Shown here: positions 4,576-60,073 of the stretch, piece after piece
How positions within the stretch are numbered: position 1 is the first letter of the stretch
Layout: every line of letters starts with the position of its first letter
DNA from: Octopus vulgaris
Taxonomy: Eukaryota
Assembly: GCA_951406725.2 (NCBI GenBank)
Contig: OX597818.1
Coordinates: forward strand, 57,412,001 to 57,476,000
Direction: 5' to 3'
Length of the DNA: 64,000 nt
Position numbers and translations under genes: made by a program
The notes under the pieces: generated by a model
Seen by the model: the letters and a program-made list of their open reading frames with translations, nothing else
Databases searched by the model: none
What the model was told of the DNA's origin: nothing

Positions 4576-4928
4576 CCGCAGGATGCTACTGTCTGAGTCT
4601 TAGGACTCATATGACCGTTTGCCTGGTTTCCATGGCTTATAAGAGTCCAAGATTACTACATTCTCTTTAAACGGTCCATTAAAATAATAATTACTCATTA
4701 GACAGTTGCTCATTAATCAGCTGAGTGGCCTGGAGCAAGGTAAAATGAAGTGTTTTACCGAAGGATTAACGCAAAAGCCGGATTTATGAAACCACCATCT
4801 TCAGATCGTGAGCACAAAACCCTAATCACACAAAATGTATTGCGACTGTAGCGGTTTATATAACTAGGATTATATAATCTGCTAAACTACAAAAATACTA
4901 TTCTTGCTAATGGTATTGTTACTCGAAA

Positions 4929-5528
4929 GGCGGCGAGCTGGCAGAAACGTTAGCACGCCGGGCGAAATGCGTAGCCGTATTTCGTCTGCCGCTACGTTCT
5001 GAGTTCAAATTCCGCCGAGGTCGACTTTGCCTTTCATCCTTTCGGGGTCGATTAAATAAGGACCAGTTACGCACTGGGGTCGATATAACCGACTTAATCC
5101 GTTTGTTTGTCCTTGTTTGTCCTCTCTCTGTTTAGCCCTTTGTGGGTAGTAAAGAAATAGGTATTTTGTCTGCCGTTACGTTCTGAGTTCAAATTCCTCC
5201 GAGGTCGACTTTGCCTTTCATCCTTTTTGGGTCGATAAATTTAGTACCAGTTACGCACTGGGGTTGATATAATAGACTTAATACCTTTGTCTGTCCTTGT
5301 TTGTCCTCTCTGTGTTTAGCGCTTTGTGGGTAGTAAAGAAATAGGTACTTCGTCTGCCGTTACGTTCTGAGTTCAAATTCCGCCGAGGTCGACTTTGCCT
5401 TTCATCCTTCCGGGGCCGATTAAATAAGTACGAGTTACGCACTGGGGTCGATGTAATCGACTTAATCCGTTTGTCTGTCCTTGTTTGCCCCCCTCTGTGT
5501 TTAGCCCCATGTGGGTAGTAAAGAAATA
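4929..5528 (+). mobile_element. SINE family A (GGCGGCGAGCTGGCAG head; CCTTTCATCCTTTCGGGGTCGATAAA core), triplicated body
   Basis: One head plus three ~190-bp bodies. TSD GGTATTGTTRCTCGA at 4912-4926 and 5529-5543. Confidence 0.9.
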
Positions 5529-5789
5529 GGTATTGTTGCTCGATTGGAGCTCAAACTCCATATTTTGTATCCAGATCATCACAGTCGCCATTTTTATATA
5601 ACGAAAGATGAATTTCGGTTGTGTCGGTTTCATATCATTTTTGACGTCAGGTGTATATCAAGTGTACATTTTCCAGTAGACATGGTCGAGTGGTTAAGAA
5701 GATCCTTTTGAAATTACGTGGTTTCAGGATCAGTCCTACTACCACACTGGGCGACGTTTGGCTAAGTGCCTTCTATAGGGGGCAGAGTC

Positions 5790-25652: not shown

Positions 25653-25884
25653 ATCAATGTGTATATTACACTATTTCATTTAGCTGAAACTTGTCTGAAA
25701 ACCAAGTGCAGATACAGGCAAAATTCAGAGTAAGCAGAGACTTAATCCACGAAAATATAACATTATTAATCTCTACAATGATATCGAGTAGACTTTTCTC
25801 TTGAGAGTCAATACTGAACGGTTATATTCGTGTATATACATAGACATCTATCTATCCATCCATTCATCTGACCGTCTATCTATC

Positions 25885-27528
<1,644 letters not shown>

Positions 27529-27887
27529 AATTCAAAATACAAAGAAACAAGAAAAACAAGAAAGGTCATTTAGACGGGAACTGTCTAAATCGGGGTTGGG
27601 GATGGATTTTTAGTGTGGTGGTCAAAAATTTCCAAAGAGAAAGATCCGAGGGCTGGTCACAATTTCTACATCTTATATCTGTGTAAATCTTGTGTGTATC
27701 TATGTATAATTTGATGTACATTAATGAAGATGAGTTTAAGATATTAAATTAACGTGTAACGTCTTCATTAGTACTGCCACTTAATTAAGGACGTTTATAT
27801 TTCTTACGAGGTATTCTATATTTTTCTGCTAGAGGGTAGCTGGGTTTCAAAGGGGTGGTACAAGCATAGCAATATGTGTTTTATAGT

Positions 27888-30862: not shown

Positions 30863-31109
30863 TGTTCACTAACATATTGCAACCACTATCAGATTGAGTT
30901 CTAGCTCACCGATCTGCTCTGCAGTTATACAACGCATACTACTTCTCTGAACCAGAAAGTTGTTTACCACCTTCCTCCATGCCGTTTCGAATCAAACTAG
31001 TTTTCAATTCTATTTTATCGAATTTCAAATTTTTATACTAAGCATATATCTATAGGCCTTGTCCAGAAATAAAATCATACAAAACATATTTTACTTGACA
31101 TGGACTTAC

Positions 31110-31176
31110 CTTAGTCAGTGATACTCTCTTTTTCACTGGTTCGTGGGGTGATATTCTGACATAGGTCCTTGTACAT
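31110..31176 (-). CDS. Speculative exon fragment ...TRTYVRISPHEPVKKRVSLTK with consensus donor AAG|GTAAGT
   Basis: Strong donor at 31109/31110; open frame back to the AT-repeat cassette; no clear acceptor. Confidence 0.25.
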
Positions 31177-31296
31177 CGAAAATTTTACACAAAAATTTTT
31201 CGAAAATTTTCGCCCAAAAATTTTTCGTAAATTTTCAATGAAAATTTTACCAAAAAATTTTTCGAAAATTTTCACGGAAAATTTTCCCCAATGGAT

Positions 31297-31443
31297 TTCC
31301 ATACTTTGTGATTTTGACACTACTGGCTTTCCATACTTTGTGATTTTGGCACCGCTGGCCTTCCATACTTTGTGATTTTGGCACCGCTGGCCTTCCATAC
31401 TTAGTGATTTTGGCGCCGCTAGCTTTCCATACTTTGTGATTTT
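31297..31443 (+). repeat. 32-bp tandem array TTCCATACTTTGTGATTTTGGCACCGCTGGCC, ~4.6 copies
   Basis: Units start at 31297, 31329, 31361, 31393 and 31425. Confidence 0.95.
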
Positions 31444-31757
31444 CCCGAAAAATTTTCGACAAAAATTTTCGGTTAAAATTCTCGGTGAAAATTTTTGGAT
31501 AGAAATTTTTGAGGAAAATTTTCGAAAAATTTCGGTGAAAATTTTTGGATAGAAATTTCTGGTGAACATTTTCAAAAAATTTTTGGTGAAAATTTTCGAA
31601 AAATTGTTGGGTAAAATTTTCAGTGAAAATTTTTGAAAAATTTGTGGGTAAAATTTTTGGTGAAAAGTTTCGGTGAAAACTTTCGAAAAATTTTGGGGTA
31701 AAATTTTTGGTGAAAATTTTCGAAAACTTTTTGCGTAAAATTTTCGATTAAAATTTT

Positions 31758-31916
31758 CGTCGGAGGAGGCACGCGCGTATACGAACAGCCGCCGACCGGC
31801 CGAGCCCTAGTCGCTCGCCTCAGATTTTGGCACGCCGATTCGTCTTCTTTTTTCCGCTTGGCGGCGGCTACTTCCCGAACTGCCGCGCTTCGTTTTTAAA
31901 CGTGTGTCGTCGGTGA
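31758..31916 (+). other. GC-rich putative 5' ETS fragment of rDNA
   Basis: Lies directly upstream of the 18S 5' end; sharp GC/CpG rise. Confidence 0.6.
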
Positions 31917-31988
31917 TACCTGGTTGATCCTGCAAGAAGTCATATGCTTGTCTCAAAGCTTAAGCCATGCAAGCGTAAATTCATACCG
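31917..31988 (+). rRNA. 18S rRNA 5'-end fragment (~70 nt, pseudogenic)
   Basis: TACCTGGTTGATCCTGCaAGaAGTCATATGCTTGTCTCAAAGcTTAAGCCATGCA is the universal eukaryotic 18S start with a few substitutions; truncated. Confidence 0.93.
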
Positions 31989-32070
31989 TAAATTTTTGGG
32001 TAAAATTTTAGGTGAAAATTTTCGGGAAATTTCTAGGTAAAATTTTTGGGTAAAATGTCGGTGAAAATTG

Positions 32071-32188
32071 CAAAACTCACAAAGTATGGAAGGCCAGCGG
32101 TGCCAAAATCACAAAGTATGGAAGTCCAGCGGTGCCAAAATCACAAAGTATGGAAAGCCAGCGGTGCCAAAATCACAAAGTATGGAAA
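32071..32188 (-). repeat. 32-bp tandem array, inverted orientation, ~3.7 copies
   Basis: CCAAAATCACAAAGTATGGAA units. Confidence 0.95.
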
Positions 32189-32436
32189 TATATTGGGGAA
32201 AATTTTCGTGAAAATGAAAAAAAAAATTTGGGGGGAAAATTTTCGAAAAATTTTTAGGGAAAAGTTTGGGTGAAAATTTTCGAAAAATTTTTGGGGAAAG
32301 TTATCGGTTAAAATTTTCGAAAAGTATTTGGATAAAATTTTCGAAAAATTTTTTGGATAAAATTTTCTGAAAATTTTCGAAAATTTTTTGGGTAAAATTT
32401 TTCGAAAATTCTCACCGAAAATTTTCACCAATGGCT

Positions 32437-32554
32437 TTCCATACTTTGTGATTTTGGCACCGCTGGCTTTCCATACTTTGTGATTTTGGCACCGCTGGCC
32501 TTCCATACTTTGTGATTTTGGCACCGCTGGCCTTCCATACTTTGTGATTTTGGC
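32437..32554 (+). repeat. 32-bp tandem array, ~3.7 copies
   Basis: Units start at 32437, 32469, 32501 and 32533. Confidence 0.95.
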
Positions 32555-33081
32555 AATTTTCACAGACATTTTACCCAAAAATTTTTCGATAATTTTCACC
32601 GAAAATTTTTCGAAAGTTCTCACCGAATATTTTCCCCTAAAATTTTCACCGAAAATTCTACCCCAAAATTTTTCGAACATTTTAACCGCAAATTTTACGC
32701 AAAAATTTTTCGAAAATTTTACCCAAAAATTTTCACCGAAAATTTTCCCCCAATACGTGAGCGTTTGTAGATTTTATATATGTGTATGTATGTGAATGTA
32801 TAAATGTGTGTGTGTGTTTGTGCCCGCGCGCGCATATATTCGTGTATGTGTCCGAGTGTTGAATGTTAAAGTCCAGCTAAGGATAATCATACGTGTAACC
32901 AACCATGAAGAACAAATCAACAGTGTAAAGAAATAAAATATCAATCTCTTTAAAACGGCAACCACTTTAAGGGTACGAGAACCACCATCCTACTACATTT
33001 ACTTTAAAAGGTGGAGCTCCAGTATGTCCGCAGTCAAATGACTGAAACAAATGAAAGAATAGAATATATATATATGCATGC

Positions 33082-38285: not shown

Positions 38286-38336
<51 letters not shown>

Positions 38337-38389
38337 TATATAAAACAATAATAAATCTCTGAACGAGATATAAACAGTAACTGCTCGAC

Positions 38390-38771
38390 AACGTAAGGGG
38401 GATCAGCCATCTGAATGTGGCTAGGGACAGGGCGGGGTGGTGGGGGTGTTACCGATGCTTTTAGCCCCAGGCGATCATCAACGTTACCAGAAGGACTGAC
38501 ACCATATCAGTGTCCTTGTTTGCCTGTAAAGGGAGGTCATCCTCCCTCGAAGATACACGTTGATAAGAGGCAATGACCTCGAAACCGGTCCGTATGTAGT
38601 ATCTGTATCTTCGAGGGAGGATGACCTCCCTTTACAGGCAAACAAGGACACTGAAATGGTGTCAGTCCTTCTGGTGACGTTGATGATCGCCTGGGGCTAA
38701 AAGCATCAGTAACACCCCCACCACCCCGCCCTGTCCCTAGCCACATTCAGATGGCTGATCCCCCTTACGTT
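38390..38771. mobile_element. Near-perfect 168-bp fold-back with a hammerhead in the loop
   Basis: 38390-38557 vs 38604-38771, ~3 mismatches by eye; right end abuts (TA)n. Confidence 0.9.
38554..38598 (+). ncRNA. Minimal type I hammerhead ribozyme, U3-A8 core variant
   Basis: ACG TTGATAA GAGG-CAATGA-CCTC GAAAC CG GTC CGT. Helix I ACG/CGT; helix II GAGG/CCTC; helix III palindrome ACCGGT; GUC triplet. Confidence 0.7.
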
Positions 38772-38887
38772 ATATATATATATATATATATAAGGTTAAT
38801 CCAAACGGGAAAACAGAAAAAACAACAACACGTGGAACAATTACAGTATTATTATTATTAGGCGCTCAGGAAAATGGAAGAAGGAGG

Positions 38888-38922
38888 GTATGACGTTTCG
38901 AGCGGAGCTCTTCGTCGGAAAC
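38888..38922 (-). ncRNA. Degenerate minimal hammerhead (Penelope pLTR-like fragment)
   Basis: Minus strand: GTTT CCGACGA A GAGC-TCC-GCTC GAAAC GTC; U4->C change in the core. Confidence 0.5.
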
Positions 38923-39030
38923 ATAAGAGAAAGAAAGAAAGATCCCGAGATATTGATAAAATGGTAAGAGAACAAAAGAATGAAAGAGACCTCGATATTA
39001 TGTAAACAGAGGAATTTATCTGTAAATGTC

Positions 39031-39256
39031 ATATGTGACAACTATTCCGTAGCTATGATATAACTCCGAGTTTCGGATGCCGAGGTGGAAAACCACGCCA
39101 CCATCTCTTCAGTTATCCGGCCATCGGAAAAATACTTGGTAATTTTTCATAGTATTTTTCTGACGGCCGGATAACTGAAAAGATAGCGGCGTGGTTTTCC
39201 GCCTCGGCATCCGAAACTCGGAGTTTTATCATGGCTACCGAATAAATGTCACATAT
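39031..39256. mobile_element. Fold-back element with a hammerhead motif in each arm
   Basis: Arms 39031-39135 and 39151-39256. Minus arm: GATAA CTGAAGA...GAAAC TCGGA GTT ATATC. Plus arm: GATAA CTGAAAA...GAAAC TCGGA GTT TTATC. Confidence 0.75.
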
Positions 39257-39311
<55 letters not shown>

Positions 39312-39411
39312 ACATGAATAAAGAGAAAACACAACAACGCGTGGACGTGGAACAAGTATAGTGTTCAGGAAAGGAAAGAAAGGACGCTCAGGAAAGGAAA
39401 GAAAGGAGGAG

Positions 39412-39447
39412 AATTTAATGTTTCGAGCGGAGCTCTTCCTCAGACAT
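39412..39447 (-). ncRNA. Minimal hammerhead core (Penelope pLTR-like fragment)
   Basis: Minus strand: CTGAGGA A GAGC-TCC-GCTC GAAAC ATTA; helix I poor. Confidence 0.5.
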
Positions 39448-40119
39448 ATATAGAAAAGTCCAAAGAAGAGAAGATGGAGAAAGGAAATCGCCAACGATAC
39501 ACACGCGGTCACATATTGATATATATTGAAATTTTAGTTCTTTATAAAAAAAATAAAATCTTTATTCTGTTCATATATTTAATTGTAAGATAGAAAGTAA
39601 AATTTAATGAAATGTATTAAAATAAATTTAAAGTGCCTACGTGATTACTGTAATCCTACTTTGGGGCCACACTGTATGTGTATAAAATATATACATATAT
39701 ATATATGTGTGTGAGTGTGTGTGTGTGTTTATATATATATATATATATACATACATATATACGTGTTTGTATGTATATACATATATTAGTGTGTGAATAC
39801 ATATATACGTGCGTATATATAAATGTGTGTGTACACATATATATATATTTATCTGTTATTAAACTTTTAATACTTTTGATATTTATATAAAAAAAATTAA
39901 TTAATTAATAAAATAATATATAAATATAAAAACATACATACATACAAACATATATATATATATTTGTATATATATATTTAAAATTTATAAGTTTAAATTA
40001 TTTAAATAATTTTTTAATTTTCAAATTTTATATTTTTAAATTAATTTTATGTATTGGCTTCTGTTTTTCACTGTTTGATTTGCCTAATAGTGGTTTTATC
40101 TCTAATTTAATTCAATTCA

Positions 40120-43599: not shown

Positions 43600-44195
43600 G
43601 TTTGCCCACAAGGGGCTAAACATAGAGGGGACAAGCAAGGATAGACAACCGGCTCAAGTCAATTACATCGACCCGAGTGCGTGACTGGTACTTAATTTAT
43701 TGACCCCGAAAGGATGAAAGGCAAAGTCGACCGCGGCGGAATTTGAACTCAGAACGTAACGGTAGACGAAATACCTATTTCTTTACTACCCACAAGGGGC
43801 CAAACACAGGGAGGACAAACAAGGACAGACAAACTGCTTAAGTCGATTATATAGACCCCAGTGCGTAACTGGTACTTTTTCAATCGACCCCGAAAGGATG
43901 AAAGGCAAAGTCGACCTCGGTGGAATTTGAACTTAGAACGTAACAGCAGACGAAATACCTATTTCTTTACTACCCACAAGGGGCCAAACACAGTGGAGAC
44001 AAACAAGGACAGACAAACGGATTACGTCCATATATATATCGACCCCAGTGCGTAACTGGTACTTAATCTATCGACCCCGAAAGGATGAGAGGCAAAGATG
44101 ACCTCGGCAGAATTTGAACTCAGAACGTAACGGCAGACGAAATACCGCTAAACATTTCGCCCGGTGTGCTAACGCTTCTGCCAGCTCACCGCCTT
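43600..44195 (-). mobile_element. SINE family A trimer
   Basis: Three bodies and one head. Confidence 0.85.
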
Positions 44196-44546
44196 ATGAC
44201 GGACAACGCTTTCCTCAGAATTACTACTAATTTGTGGCCTAAACGCGACATATAACCCTTTCGTAACTGTTTCGCGTGCGAGTTTGAATCCTGGCATCCC
44301 ATCTGCGCCTTTAATCCTTCCAGGGATGATCTGCTAAAATGCTCTCAATTGTTAGGGAGTCATTTAATCAAATATACACTTCCTCTAAATATCTGGCTTT
44401 TTGGAGTTTTACGCAGGCAGGAATAAAAGGTACTACTAGCGAACAGTGCGCGCACTCGCGTATCCGCGCTAGCTAGTCGTATGTAGTCGATCCTACAACG
44501 ACTTGCGCGTATGTTTGTATTTAAAGGCTGAATACATATCAAAGAA

Positions 44547-51720: not shown

Positions 51721-52324
51721 TACATAAAATACGTTAGTTCACAGTATAGACAATAATTTGAATAAGTTCAACCAGTCACGTTTGTAATATATTTTGTATA
51801 TGCTTTCCTGGTACCATAGTCACCGTAGATTTCAGAAAATGTGTAGATTTGTGAAAGCAATTTATTCTACAGTTACTGACTTTTTCTTTTGTTAGACTAG
51901 TGTAGAAGCCTTCTGTAGTTCTGTGATCAATAGTACAACGTGTTTATCACGTTGCCATTGTGCTGGCAGTTGGGTTGTTGTTTCTTAATATCATCATAGT
52001 GTACCAAGCGAGAACCATACAAATCTTTTGTTCAATTTCTTTTGTTGAGCGTCATACACGTAAATATGAAACTTGAATAATATTTCTATGGCTGTGCTGC
52101 CTAAAAAAAAAATAACAAAAACATGAAGGTGAATAAAATATTCTTGCTGAAAGGTTGGCATTCCGTTAATTTTTTTCGACTAGCACTCTGGCAAAATGTT
52201 TAAATTAAACGATGTTATTGATAATATTTTTAATATCGTGTGTATAAGGATGATATCCTTGTTTAGATTGAATAACGGAGACAATATTTTTTAGATAGAT
52301 GTTCGCATAGCATCTTTGGATTTT

Positions 52325-52735
52325 GCGAGATGGCAGAATCGTTCGCATGCCGGGTTAAATGTTCAGCACTATTTCGTCTGCCGTTATGTTCTGAGTTCAA
52401 ATTCCGCCGAGGTCGACTTTGCCTTTCATCATTTCGGGGTCGATAAAACAAGTATCAGTTACGCACTGGGGTCGACATAATCAACTTAATCCGTTTGTCT
52501 GTCCTTGTTTTCCGCCCTCTGTGTTTAGCCCCTTGTGTGCAGTAAAGAAATAGGTATTTCGTCTGTTGCTACGTTCTGAGTTCAAATTCTGCCGAGGTCG
52601 ACTTTGCCTTTCATCCTTTCGGGGTCGATTAAATAAGTACCAGTTACGCACCGAGGTCGATATAATCGACTTAATCCGTTTGTCTGTCCTTGTTTGTCCT
52701 CTATGTGTGTAGCCCCTTGTGGGCAGTAAATAAGA
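52325..52735 (+). mobile_element. SINE family A dimer
   Basis: Matches consensus. Confidence 0.85.
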
Positions 52736-52803
52736 AATGCTTAGTTTTTGTTTGTAGTGGATTCTAATAATTCTTTGGAGGCATTTGCAAAGATGGAGTT
52801 CAA

Positions 52804-58597: not shown

Positions 58598-58740
58598 ATT
58601 GCAAAGCAAAACTCTGCCACCTTTTGTTTTTTTGTTATATTTCGTTTATGATATTTAGAAGTGTTTCATGATATGGCCCAACAAATATTACCCATCATAC
58701 TTTGCTTAACTTTTACCTTGGTATCAGATTCGTTGACAAA

Positions 58741-59156
58741 AGGTGGCGAGCTGGCTGAAACATTAGCACGCTGGACGAAATGCCTAGCGGTATTGCGTCT
58801 ACCGCTACGTTCTGAGTTCAAATTCCGCCGAGGTTGACTTTGCCTTTCATCCTTTCGGGGTCGATTAAATAAGAACCAGTTACGCACTGGAGTCGATATA
58901 ATCGACTTAATCCGTTTGTCTGTCCTCGTTTGTCCCCTCTATGTTTAGCCCCTTATGGGTAGTAAAGAAATAGGTATTTCGTCTGCCGCTACGTTCTGAG
59001 TTCAAATTCCGCCGAGGTCGACTTTGCCTTTCATCCTTTCGGGGTCGATTAAATAAGAACCAGTTACGCACTGGAGTCGATATAATCGACTTAATCCGTT
59101 TGTCTGTCCTCGTTTGTCCTCTCTGTGTTTAGTCCCTTGTGGATAGTAAAGAAATA
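58741..59156 (+). mobile_element. SINE family A dimer
   Basis: TSD CAGATTCGTTGACAA. Confidence 0.9.
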
Positions 59157-60073
59157 GGTGGCAGATTCGTTGACAATTCTCTCTTGGTGAGAATAATACT
59201 TCAATACTGATATGCAAGGTATACGCCAAGGTGTTAGTGCAAAGCATGTACGTAGAAAGATATCCTGCTGCCGATTGTTTAAAATGCATTCACCATGTGA
59301 CACAATCTCCAAGCAGTTTTCAGATCTGTGATTTCTGATAAATACTCGACGTTTACAAACATATTTTTAAGATACCGTGATTTTTCATGATATTTTGTTA
59401 GGAATGATGAACTTTCCATAACACAACGTGTGATGAAGATCAATATAGTTGCTAAATTCTAACTTAATATATTTCAAACCATCGTTGAAACCTGAAATAG
59501 CAAATTGAATAATTTTGAACTATAAAGGTCGAAGGGAAAAGTCTCCATTCTTGTAATCATAGATCCAACTAACTTCTACTTTTCATTTGTCAATTGGACA
59601 TTCTTCAGAATTTCATGTAATCTTCATGCTTTGATAAAAGTTCAGAAATACACGTAACTAGGAAATGTATGCTGACAGATTTAATATCTCCACCACTACA
59701 AGACTTGCGTAAAGCAACTGGTAGCGACAAATGTTGTGTATCTCCTCTCCTTCCAAATTTCAGATTCACAACTTGATTCACAAAATGTTTACTTGCTTTA
59801 GAATTATTTGACTCTGGCAAACCCATTGCCTGTATCGTGTATAAACTACAACAATCGGAAAAAATAATATTTGCAATGGTCTGCTTTCGTGTTTAGCCAA
59901 ACAAGTAATATTATATGATACAACGCAAAACGAAGTGTGGTGTTTAACATTCTTCTATGTAATCAACTTTCAGATTTTATTGTGGTAACTATGTTTATCT
60001 ACAGCTGTATACTATTCACATACAAAATAATCCCGCTGACAATGATCTGAACAGCAATGGACACCATGCAAAT

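Follow-up and report, generated by a model that had tools for sequence, protein, structure and literature searches.

The inverted-repeat element at positions 38342-38771 of the window, the 64,000-nt stretch of the Octopus vulgaris genome that we analysed, is very probably an inverted insertion with two arms, truncated at the 5' end, of a non-LTR retrozyme, here a hammerhead repeat arrayed in tandem units of ~360 nt. The enzyme of a Penelope-like element (PLE) likely inserted it, and its copy of the ribozyme is predicted to be inactive. The hairpin would then be an ordinary broken insertion, an integration by-product of a known element class, and this copy is likely dead.

The window element

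The window lies on contig C5 of the genome that we searched (2.8 Gb, 227 contigs), in AT-rich surroundings with many microsatellites and dispersed repeats. The hairpin has a left arm at 38390-38557 and a right arm at 38604-38771, which match as inverted repeats in 165 of 168 bases (mismatches at 38453, 38485, and 38506) around a 46-nt loop, 38558-38603. An earlier note on this DNA had described ~98% identical inverted arms around a 46-nt loop that is a type I hammerhead ribozyme (HHR) with a U3-A8 core, and both the arm alignment and the core letters agree with it. The same note set the element at 38390..38771, which is right for the arms but stops 48 nt short on the left, where 38342-38389 is the reverse complement of the next unit's start. 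The whole element is flanked on both sides by (TA)n tracts and consists of an inverted piece (the unit's last 168 nt plus the next unit's 48 nt) joined to a sense piece that begins 3 nt 5' of the HHR core. About 95 nt of the unit are absent from both arms, and the copy is shorter than one unit; A38557 is shared by the long arm and the remnant of HHR helix I. The features are as follows.

38288..38341, no strand: (TA)n target, left flank (sequence; in the family, (TA)3 follows within 14 nt at 118 of 192 3' ends)
38342..38389, minus strand: 48-nt PLE-type tail, the next unit's start, on the left arm only (inverted match to unit start; 95 of 240 family 3' ends at +40..+52)
38390..38557, minus strand: left arm, an inverted, 5'-truncated copy of the unit's 3' part (arm alignment and unit mapping)
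38557..38593, plus strand: type I hammerhead with helix I reduced to 2-3 bp (core motif, alignment with family units, folding)
38560-66, plus strand: U3-A8 core, U3 U4 G5 A6 U7 A8 A9 (sequence)
38567-80, plus strand: HHR helix II, 4 bp (sequence)
38581-83, plus strand: G12-A13-A14 (sequence)
38584-89, plus strand: HHR helix III palindrome ACCGGT (sequence)
38590, plus strand: C17 of GUC, with predicted cleavage after it (sequence)
38594..38603, plus strand: orphaned 3' strand of the native extended helix I, its partner strand deleted by the inversion junction (comparison with intact units)
38604..38771, plus strand: right arm, in sense orientation and derived from the 3' part of the unit; it stops at the main fixed end of the family (109 of 240 family 3' ends at -12..0)
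38772..38792, no strand: (TA)n target, right flank (sequence)

A strict HHR descriptor matches once in the window, as compared to twice in 20 shuffled windows, and the exact 35-mer of the window HHR occurs 29 times in the genome, as compared to no occurrence of its reversed control; by these counts the motif is more than chance. In an Rfam scan no family reached its gathering score, and the weaker matches, up to E=10, included no hammerhead; the loop region folded alone gives uninformative z scores of -1.1 to +0.6.

Several other repeats share the window. On the minus strand, 38793-38930 and 39310-39450 are related to each other and resemble 3' ends of PLEs; each has a minimal hammerhead core, at 38918 and 39443 respectively, and borders (TA)n. 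The former directly adjoins the right flank of the element. A further inverted repeat, which looks like a MITE, occupies 39061-39224, where long miRNA-hairpin models matched below gathering score. Dispersed repeats with a 184-nt tandem spacing are found in both orientations at 4926-5534, 43605-44211, 52318-52802, and 58739-59222, in which an HHR scan found no core. Positions 25820-27610 form a ~1.8-kb (TA)n tract, and positions 31100-32800 a low-complexity tract rich in T/A runs with long open frames.

The repeat family

A genome search with the element produced at least 106 matches (40 of 1,484 candidates scored), with copies 89-99% identical. In the other copies ~140 nt that are absent from the window precede the HHR, and a new unit start succeeds the arm; the tandem arrays have a period of 353-360 nt and 2.8-10.2 copies. 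The 16 reference units measure 350-361 nt and are non-coding, with a longest ATG-initiated ORF of 80 aa. Their GC content, 0.43-0.50, lies partly above the <45% given for animal retrozymes by Cervera & de la Peña 2020 (PMC7229834), who report mussel units of ~350-390 bp.

By its sequence-level features, with a borderline GC content, the family would be an animal non-LTR retrozyme. Like those described (PMC7229834; bioRxiv 10.64898/2026.07.22.740005), it consists of non-coding ~350-360-nt tandem monomers with a type I HHR each, a weak palindromic helix III, and a strongly folding monomer; the folding is here predicted, circular monomers from four subfamilies giving z scores of -3.5 to -8.7 (25 shuffles each). 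The window copy itself differs from animal retrozyme units in being less than one unit long. Li et al. (bioRxiv 10.64898/2026.07.22.740005) call a retrozyme 'active' when it has two consecutive complete HHR units; the window copy has one partial HHR and less than one unit. Contigs of four runs, whose RNA origin is a guess, cover parts of sibling units, one of them 322 nt, and are silent on transcription, strand, ends, and editing. Recently active PLEs are recorded in a published survey of Octopus vulgaris repeats, the main text of which never uses the word ribozyme (PMC13282606).

The family ribozyme

At the family level the ribozyme looks real and selected, to judge from an alignment of 22 rows (21 units plus the window). 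Its core is invariant except at positions 3, 7, and 8; 95% of helix cells are paired, and 13 of 25 pairs change on both sides. None of 500 shuffles scored as high, a test inflated by the relatedness of the rows, and slid controls gave 2-6. Helix I has 97.7% of its cells paired, with compensatory changes in the helix and its extension. Helix III is a palindrome in 15 of the 16 reference units, through four different palindromes. Two native HHR regions cofolded are predicted to adopt a double-hammerhead form at -64.3 kcal/mol as compared to 2 x -28.2 kcal/mol for the single regions, which is 7.9 kcal/mol lower.

The 3-8 core pair

Using an HHR pattern with fixed helix II, we retrieved 1,219 motifs genome-wide and none with the reversed control. 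Among these, C3-G8 accounts for 572 (by subtraction), U3-A8 for 520, U3·G8 for 93, and C3·A8 for 34. Positions 3 and 8 thus form a Watson-Crick pair in 1,092 of 1,219 (90%), as compared to the 50% that would be found if the positions were independent, although the motifs are copies rather than independent events. The 647 motifs that are not C3-G8 suggest that descriptors limited to C3-G8 undercount retrozymes; unlike in animal retrozymes, U3 and/or A8 is present in about half of the pattern-matched motifs here, and canonical descriptors would overlook these.

We reduced 96 candidate units to 28, one per locus and state; on their midpoint-rooted tree the 3-8 pair changes at least five times. 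A group of C3-G8 and C3·A8 units (support 96/99) is nested among U3-A8 units, and U3·G8 arises at two places. This topology, whose root is a midpoint only, suggests reversals by way of the mismatched states. The mismatched units (U·G and C·A; L036, L038, L054, and L058) include tandem arrays of both states. The 3-8 pair covaries across subfamilies, as expected if U3-A8 is the compensatory change proposed from the window sequence; copies had also been suggested as the place to look for such covariation, and their core substitutions proved non-random.

The U3-A8 hammerhead is itself already published: natural covariation and in vitro activity have been described (Perreault 2011, PMC3088659), and minimal HHRs with U3-A8 in the Schistosoma PLE Cercyon give ~1,300 matches in S. 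mansoni (PMC4209133). The octopus motifs share that compensatory core pair. Unlike the published U3-A8 hammerheads, they are complete type I HHRs that have a long helix I and belong to tandem units; all four 3-8 states are present, some of them arrayed. Amplified U3·G8 and C3·A8 lineages did not appear in our literature searches. Such natural amplified U·G and C·A states would allow compensatory evolution of a ribozyme core to be assayed with real alleles.

Predicted loss of activity in the window copy

At the inversion junction the window copy lost the native 5' strand of helix I, extension included, so that 2-3 bp remain. The ACG/CGT pairing that had been read as helix I is present as letters, but it is not the complete helix, which in intact units has 6 bp plus a long extension. 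When the whole hairpin is folded, pair probabilities for helices I and II are ~0, and the HHR can be imposed only at a cost of 6.1-6.5 kcal/mol (P≤1e-4). In native units, the corresponding probabilities are 0.79-1.0 for helix I and 0.96-0.97 for helix II. The window copy's ribozyme is therefore predicted to be inactive, although it could still cleave slowly, because folding models ignore tertiary contacts. As the copy lacks ~95 nt of the unit, the monomer cannot be produced from it. If transcribed, it would give 168 bp of dsRNA, like any inverted repeat.

Insertion architecture

We mapped 148 loci (~129 distinct after imperfect de-duplication by flank), found by arm, HHR-pattern, and tail-pattern searches and located mostly on contigs C1-C2, which makes them a non-random sample. 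Inverted two-arm insertions make up 88 of the ~129. Of these 88, 63 stop on one side where the unit stops and on the other side 40-52 nt further on, inside the next unit. Most 3' ends (204 of 240) fall in two clusters ~47 nt apart, 109 at -12..0 and 95 at +40..+52, and (TA)3 follows 118 of 192 such ends. Measured from the cleavage site, insertions end ~180 and ~227 nt further downstream. Inner junctions occur throughout the unit, and a single HHR core is left in the loop in only 4 of 88 inverted insertions; L016, L022, and L234 have junctions similar to that of the window. We saw no run-off of reverse transcriptase at the cleavage site, which would have been a sign of cleavage in vivo: 7 of 176 inner junctions lie there as compared to 4.9 expected, and 8 of 215 as compared to 6.2. 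Copies continue through the cleavage site, with up to 11 chained pieces in the locus set before removal of duplicates, and this fits a circular or uncleaved template.

The hallmarks of PLE insertion are a tail, an inverted truncated copy, and a bias to (TA)n (PMC8557442), and a purified PLE protein, PAc, nicks and extends both strands, with reverse transcription starting at two internal sites that bound the tail (PMC11167929). The features of PLE-mobilised insertions, namely a one-end tail, an inverted 5'-truncated copy, and a (TA)n target, are all present in the octopus family. It resembles PLE pLTR/tail insertions (PMC8557442; PMC11167929) further in its AT-rich or (TA)n targets and its two internal start sites; it is unlike them in having no RT/GIY-YIG frame and a tail of 43-49 nt rather than 30-40. 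Published retrozyme work argues the PLE link from shared HHRs, co-occurrence, and phylogeny (PMC7229834; bioRxiv 10.64898/2026.07.22.740005), whereas here inverted and tailed ends of PLE type are mapped directly. The family ends give direct genomic support for PLE machinery inserting animal retrozymes, with two internal start sites and double-strand priming. PLE insertion in vitro proceeds without need for HHR cleavage (PMC11167929).

We propose that tandem arrays are transcribed, that neighbouring HHRs pair their palindromic helices III and cleave as dimers, and that the cleaved monomers are ligated into circles. A PLE RT-endonuclease dimer would nick both (TA)n strands, cDNA would begin at two internal sites flanking the tail, and both cDNAs would stop early and be joined head-to-head where they stopped. 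In the window case, one cDNA would have stopped ~15 nt 3' of the cleavage site and the other 3 nt 5' of the core, leaving one HHR core in the loop by chance. We thus infer that the hairpin consists of two cDNAs primed on opposite strands and joined at their stop points.

Alternative explanations and the partner PLE

The earlier note had proposed a young, non-coding ribozyme-hairpin retroelement: a dedicated element that displays the HHR in the loop, cleaves the loop open, and leaves dsRNA or a primer for reverse transcription. Young, non-coding, and PLE-linked agree with what we found (the copies are 89-99% identical), and in its favour the description of arms and loop holds, helix I keeps 2-3 bp, and the three loci named above have a similar junction. 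The ribozyme in the loop as the element's design does not hold, since the mobile unit is the ~360-nt tandem monomer, inversion junctions are scattered over the whole unit, and one HHR in the loop occurs in few insertions. Cleavage that opens the loop or primes reverse transcription fares no better, since the junction broke helix I by removing its native 5' strand, the HHR fold is predicted to be inaccessible, the insertion ends lie away from the cleavage site, and ~95 nt of the unit are missing from both arms. We consider this model already largely refuted and extremely unlikely. Less credible still is the capture of an HHR by a MITE (a DNA transposon bounded by terminal inverted repeats), or else an assembly fold-back artefact. 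Long, near-perfect inverted arms would fit either, but both arms come from the 3' part of the unit itself, the tail makes them unequal, and their length varies between loci, and an artefact has to contend with three arm mismatches and with 63 loci that follow the same two-end rule; we give it hardly any credence.

It is very unlikely, though not to the same degree, that the element belongs to an autonomous PLE, as its pseudo-LTR in truncated form, and not to a non-autonomous retrozyme. The end architecture is the same as in PLE insertions, and autonomous PLEs of this genome have U3-A8 minimal HHRs; yet the units stand in ORF-free tandem arrays. The RT and GIY-YIG ORF of an autonomous PLE is absent from the 16 reference units, and a tblastn search of 88 unit loci with seven natural PLE ORF pieces gave one 22-aa match, ~1 kb from the unit. 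DNA comparison points the same way: the unit has no sequence in common with any of 30 GIY-YIG loci. Against the reading that we retain, the search for a partner PLE gave no candidate among these 30 loci, and the tail hairpin pattern is absent from all of 50. A U3-A8 minimal HHR is found in 18 of the 30 GIY-YIG loci. One full-length PLE (L218, G000:C16:20834500-20841000) has frames of 359 and 781 aa with RT and GIY-YIG and a U3-A8 minimal HHR at both ends; it resembles the family only loosely, in its U3-A8 minimal HHR, (TA)n target, and ~39-nt tail. The reading as an inverted retrozyme insertion is the one that we retain.

As a separate observation, PLE frames of 781 aa are numerous in the genome (L059-L088), which suggests recent activity.

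A LINE in sister subfamilies

In sister subfamilies of the retrozyme, a LINE has inserted site-specifically. In four cases where two HHRs lay far apart, the unit turned out to be split by a ~5.3-kb LINE whose ORF1 has a zinc knuckle (zf-CCHC) and whose ORF2 has Exo_endo_phos (AP-endonuclease), RVT_1, and zf-RVT domains, the nearest solved protein being L1 ORF2p; it is of L1/Tx1 type, and its domain order and behaviour make it a putative member of the Tx1 clade. Its insertion point is the 5' edge of the extended helix I, ~25 nt upstream of the core, with which it is co-oriented (L051-L054, L169-L198, L279-L288; e.g. G000:C19:70130600-70140200), so that the HHR downstream is left intact.

With a 200-aa ORF2 query taken from one retrozyme-inserted copy, we listed 150 loci and read the flanks of the best 30. 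The retrozyme lies directly downstream in 22, the target word with a further element in one, and another repeat in seven. Re-reading 10 of the 22 retrozyme-flanked copies, we found the unit's upstream part on the other side in all eight with an intact 5' end, and target duplications as exact words of 9-20 bp in six of those copies, comparable to the 10-19 bp at earlier loci. Target-specific LINEs have been defined as those with >20% of flanks in one repeat (PMC4494074); the 22 of 30 here, with their target duplications, are in that range.

Behind the LINE end motif, the 23-nt target pattern of the window's own subfamily has no exact match. The corresponding pattern for subfamily C has 18 matches and one control match, although its stringency differs from that of the window-subfamily pattern. 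Sister LINE subfamilies (82-88% identity) are without the unit, and the flanks read are other repeats, often tandem. Because these sisters sit in other repeats, ordinary endonuclease sequence preference is favoured as the explanation of the site. Some of them (L289-L297; 83-88% identity) lie in two other repeats with 13-17-bp duplications, in tandem arrays of ~5.28-kb period.

Target-specific Tx1-clade LINEs in other repeats are known, among them Tx1L in Tx1D, Tx1-Mar, and Keno (PMC4494074), and the octopus LINE resembles them in its ORF1 zinc knuckle, AP-endonuclease-RT ORF2, fixed site in a repeat, target duplications, and tandem arrays. It differs in its target: those listed there are transposons, snRNA, 5S, microsatellites, and unnamed satellites (PMC4494074), whereas here the target is a ribozyme-bearing retrozyme. 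Our literature searches returned no paper on a LINE with a retrozyme target, although the 'Sat' targets of PMC4494074 might include HHR satellites; a ribozyme-bearing repeat that a LINE hits with single-site precision is a target class that those searches did not turn up.

It is conceivable, though we think it unlikely, that this LINE lineage parasitises retrozymes and uses their ribozymes, being co-transcribed from an array and cut out by the flanking HHRs. If so, the parasite would gain a ribozyme-made 3' end that includes ~55 nt of the target, and it might also pass through a circular intermediate.

A 1.6-kb ORF1-only relative of the LINE (L089-L138) is inserted immediately upstream of hammerheads in several other HHR families that differ in sequence; these insertions often stand in tandem, the target being regenerated. 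Further families of HHR repeats, at least three in number (L119, L122, L124, and L130), run into (TA)n with a similar tail hairpin, one of them with a 358-nt period; one has a U3-A8 core and another a C at position 4.
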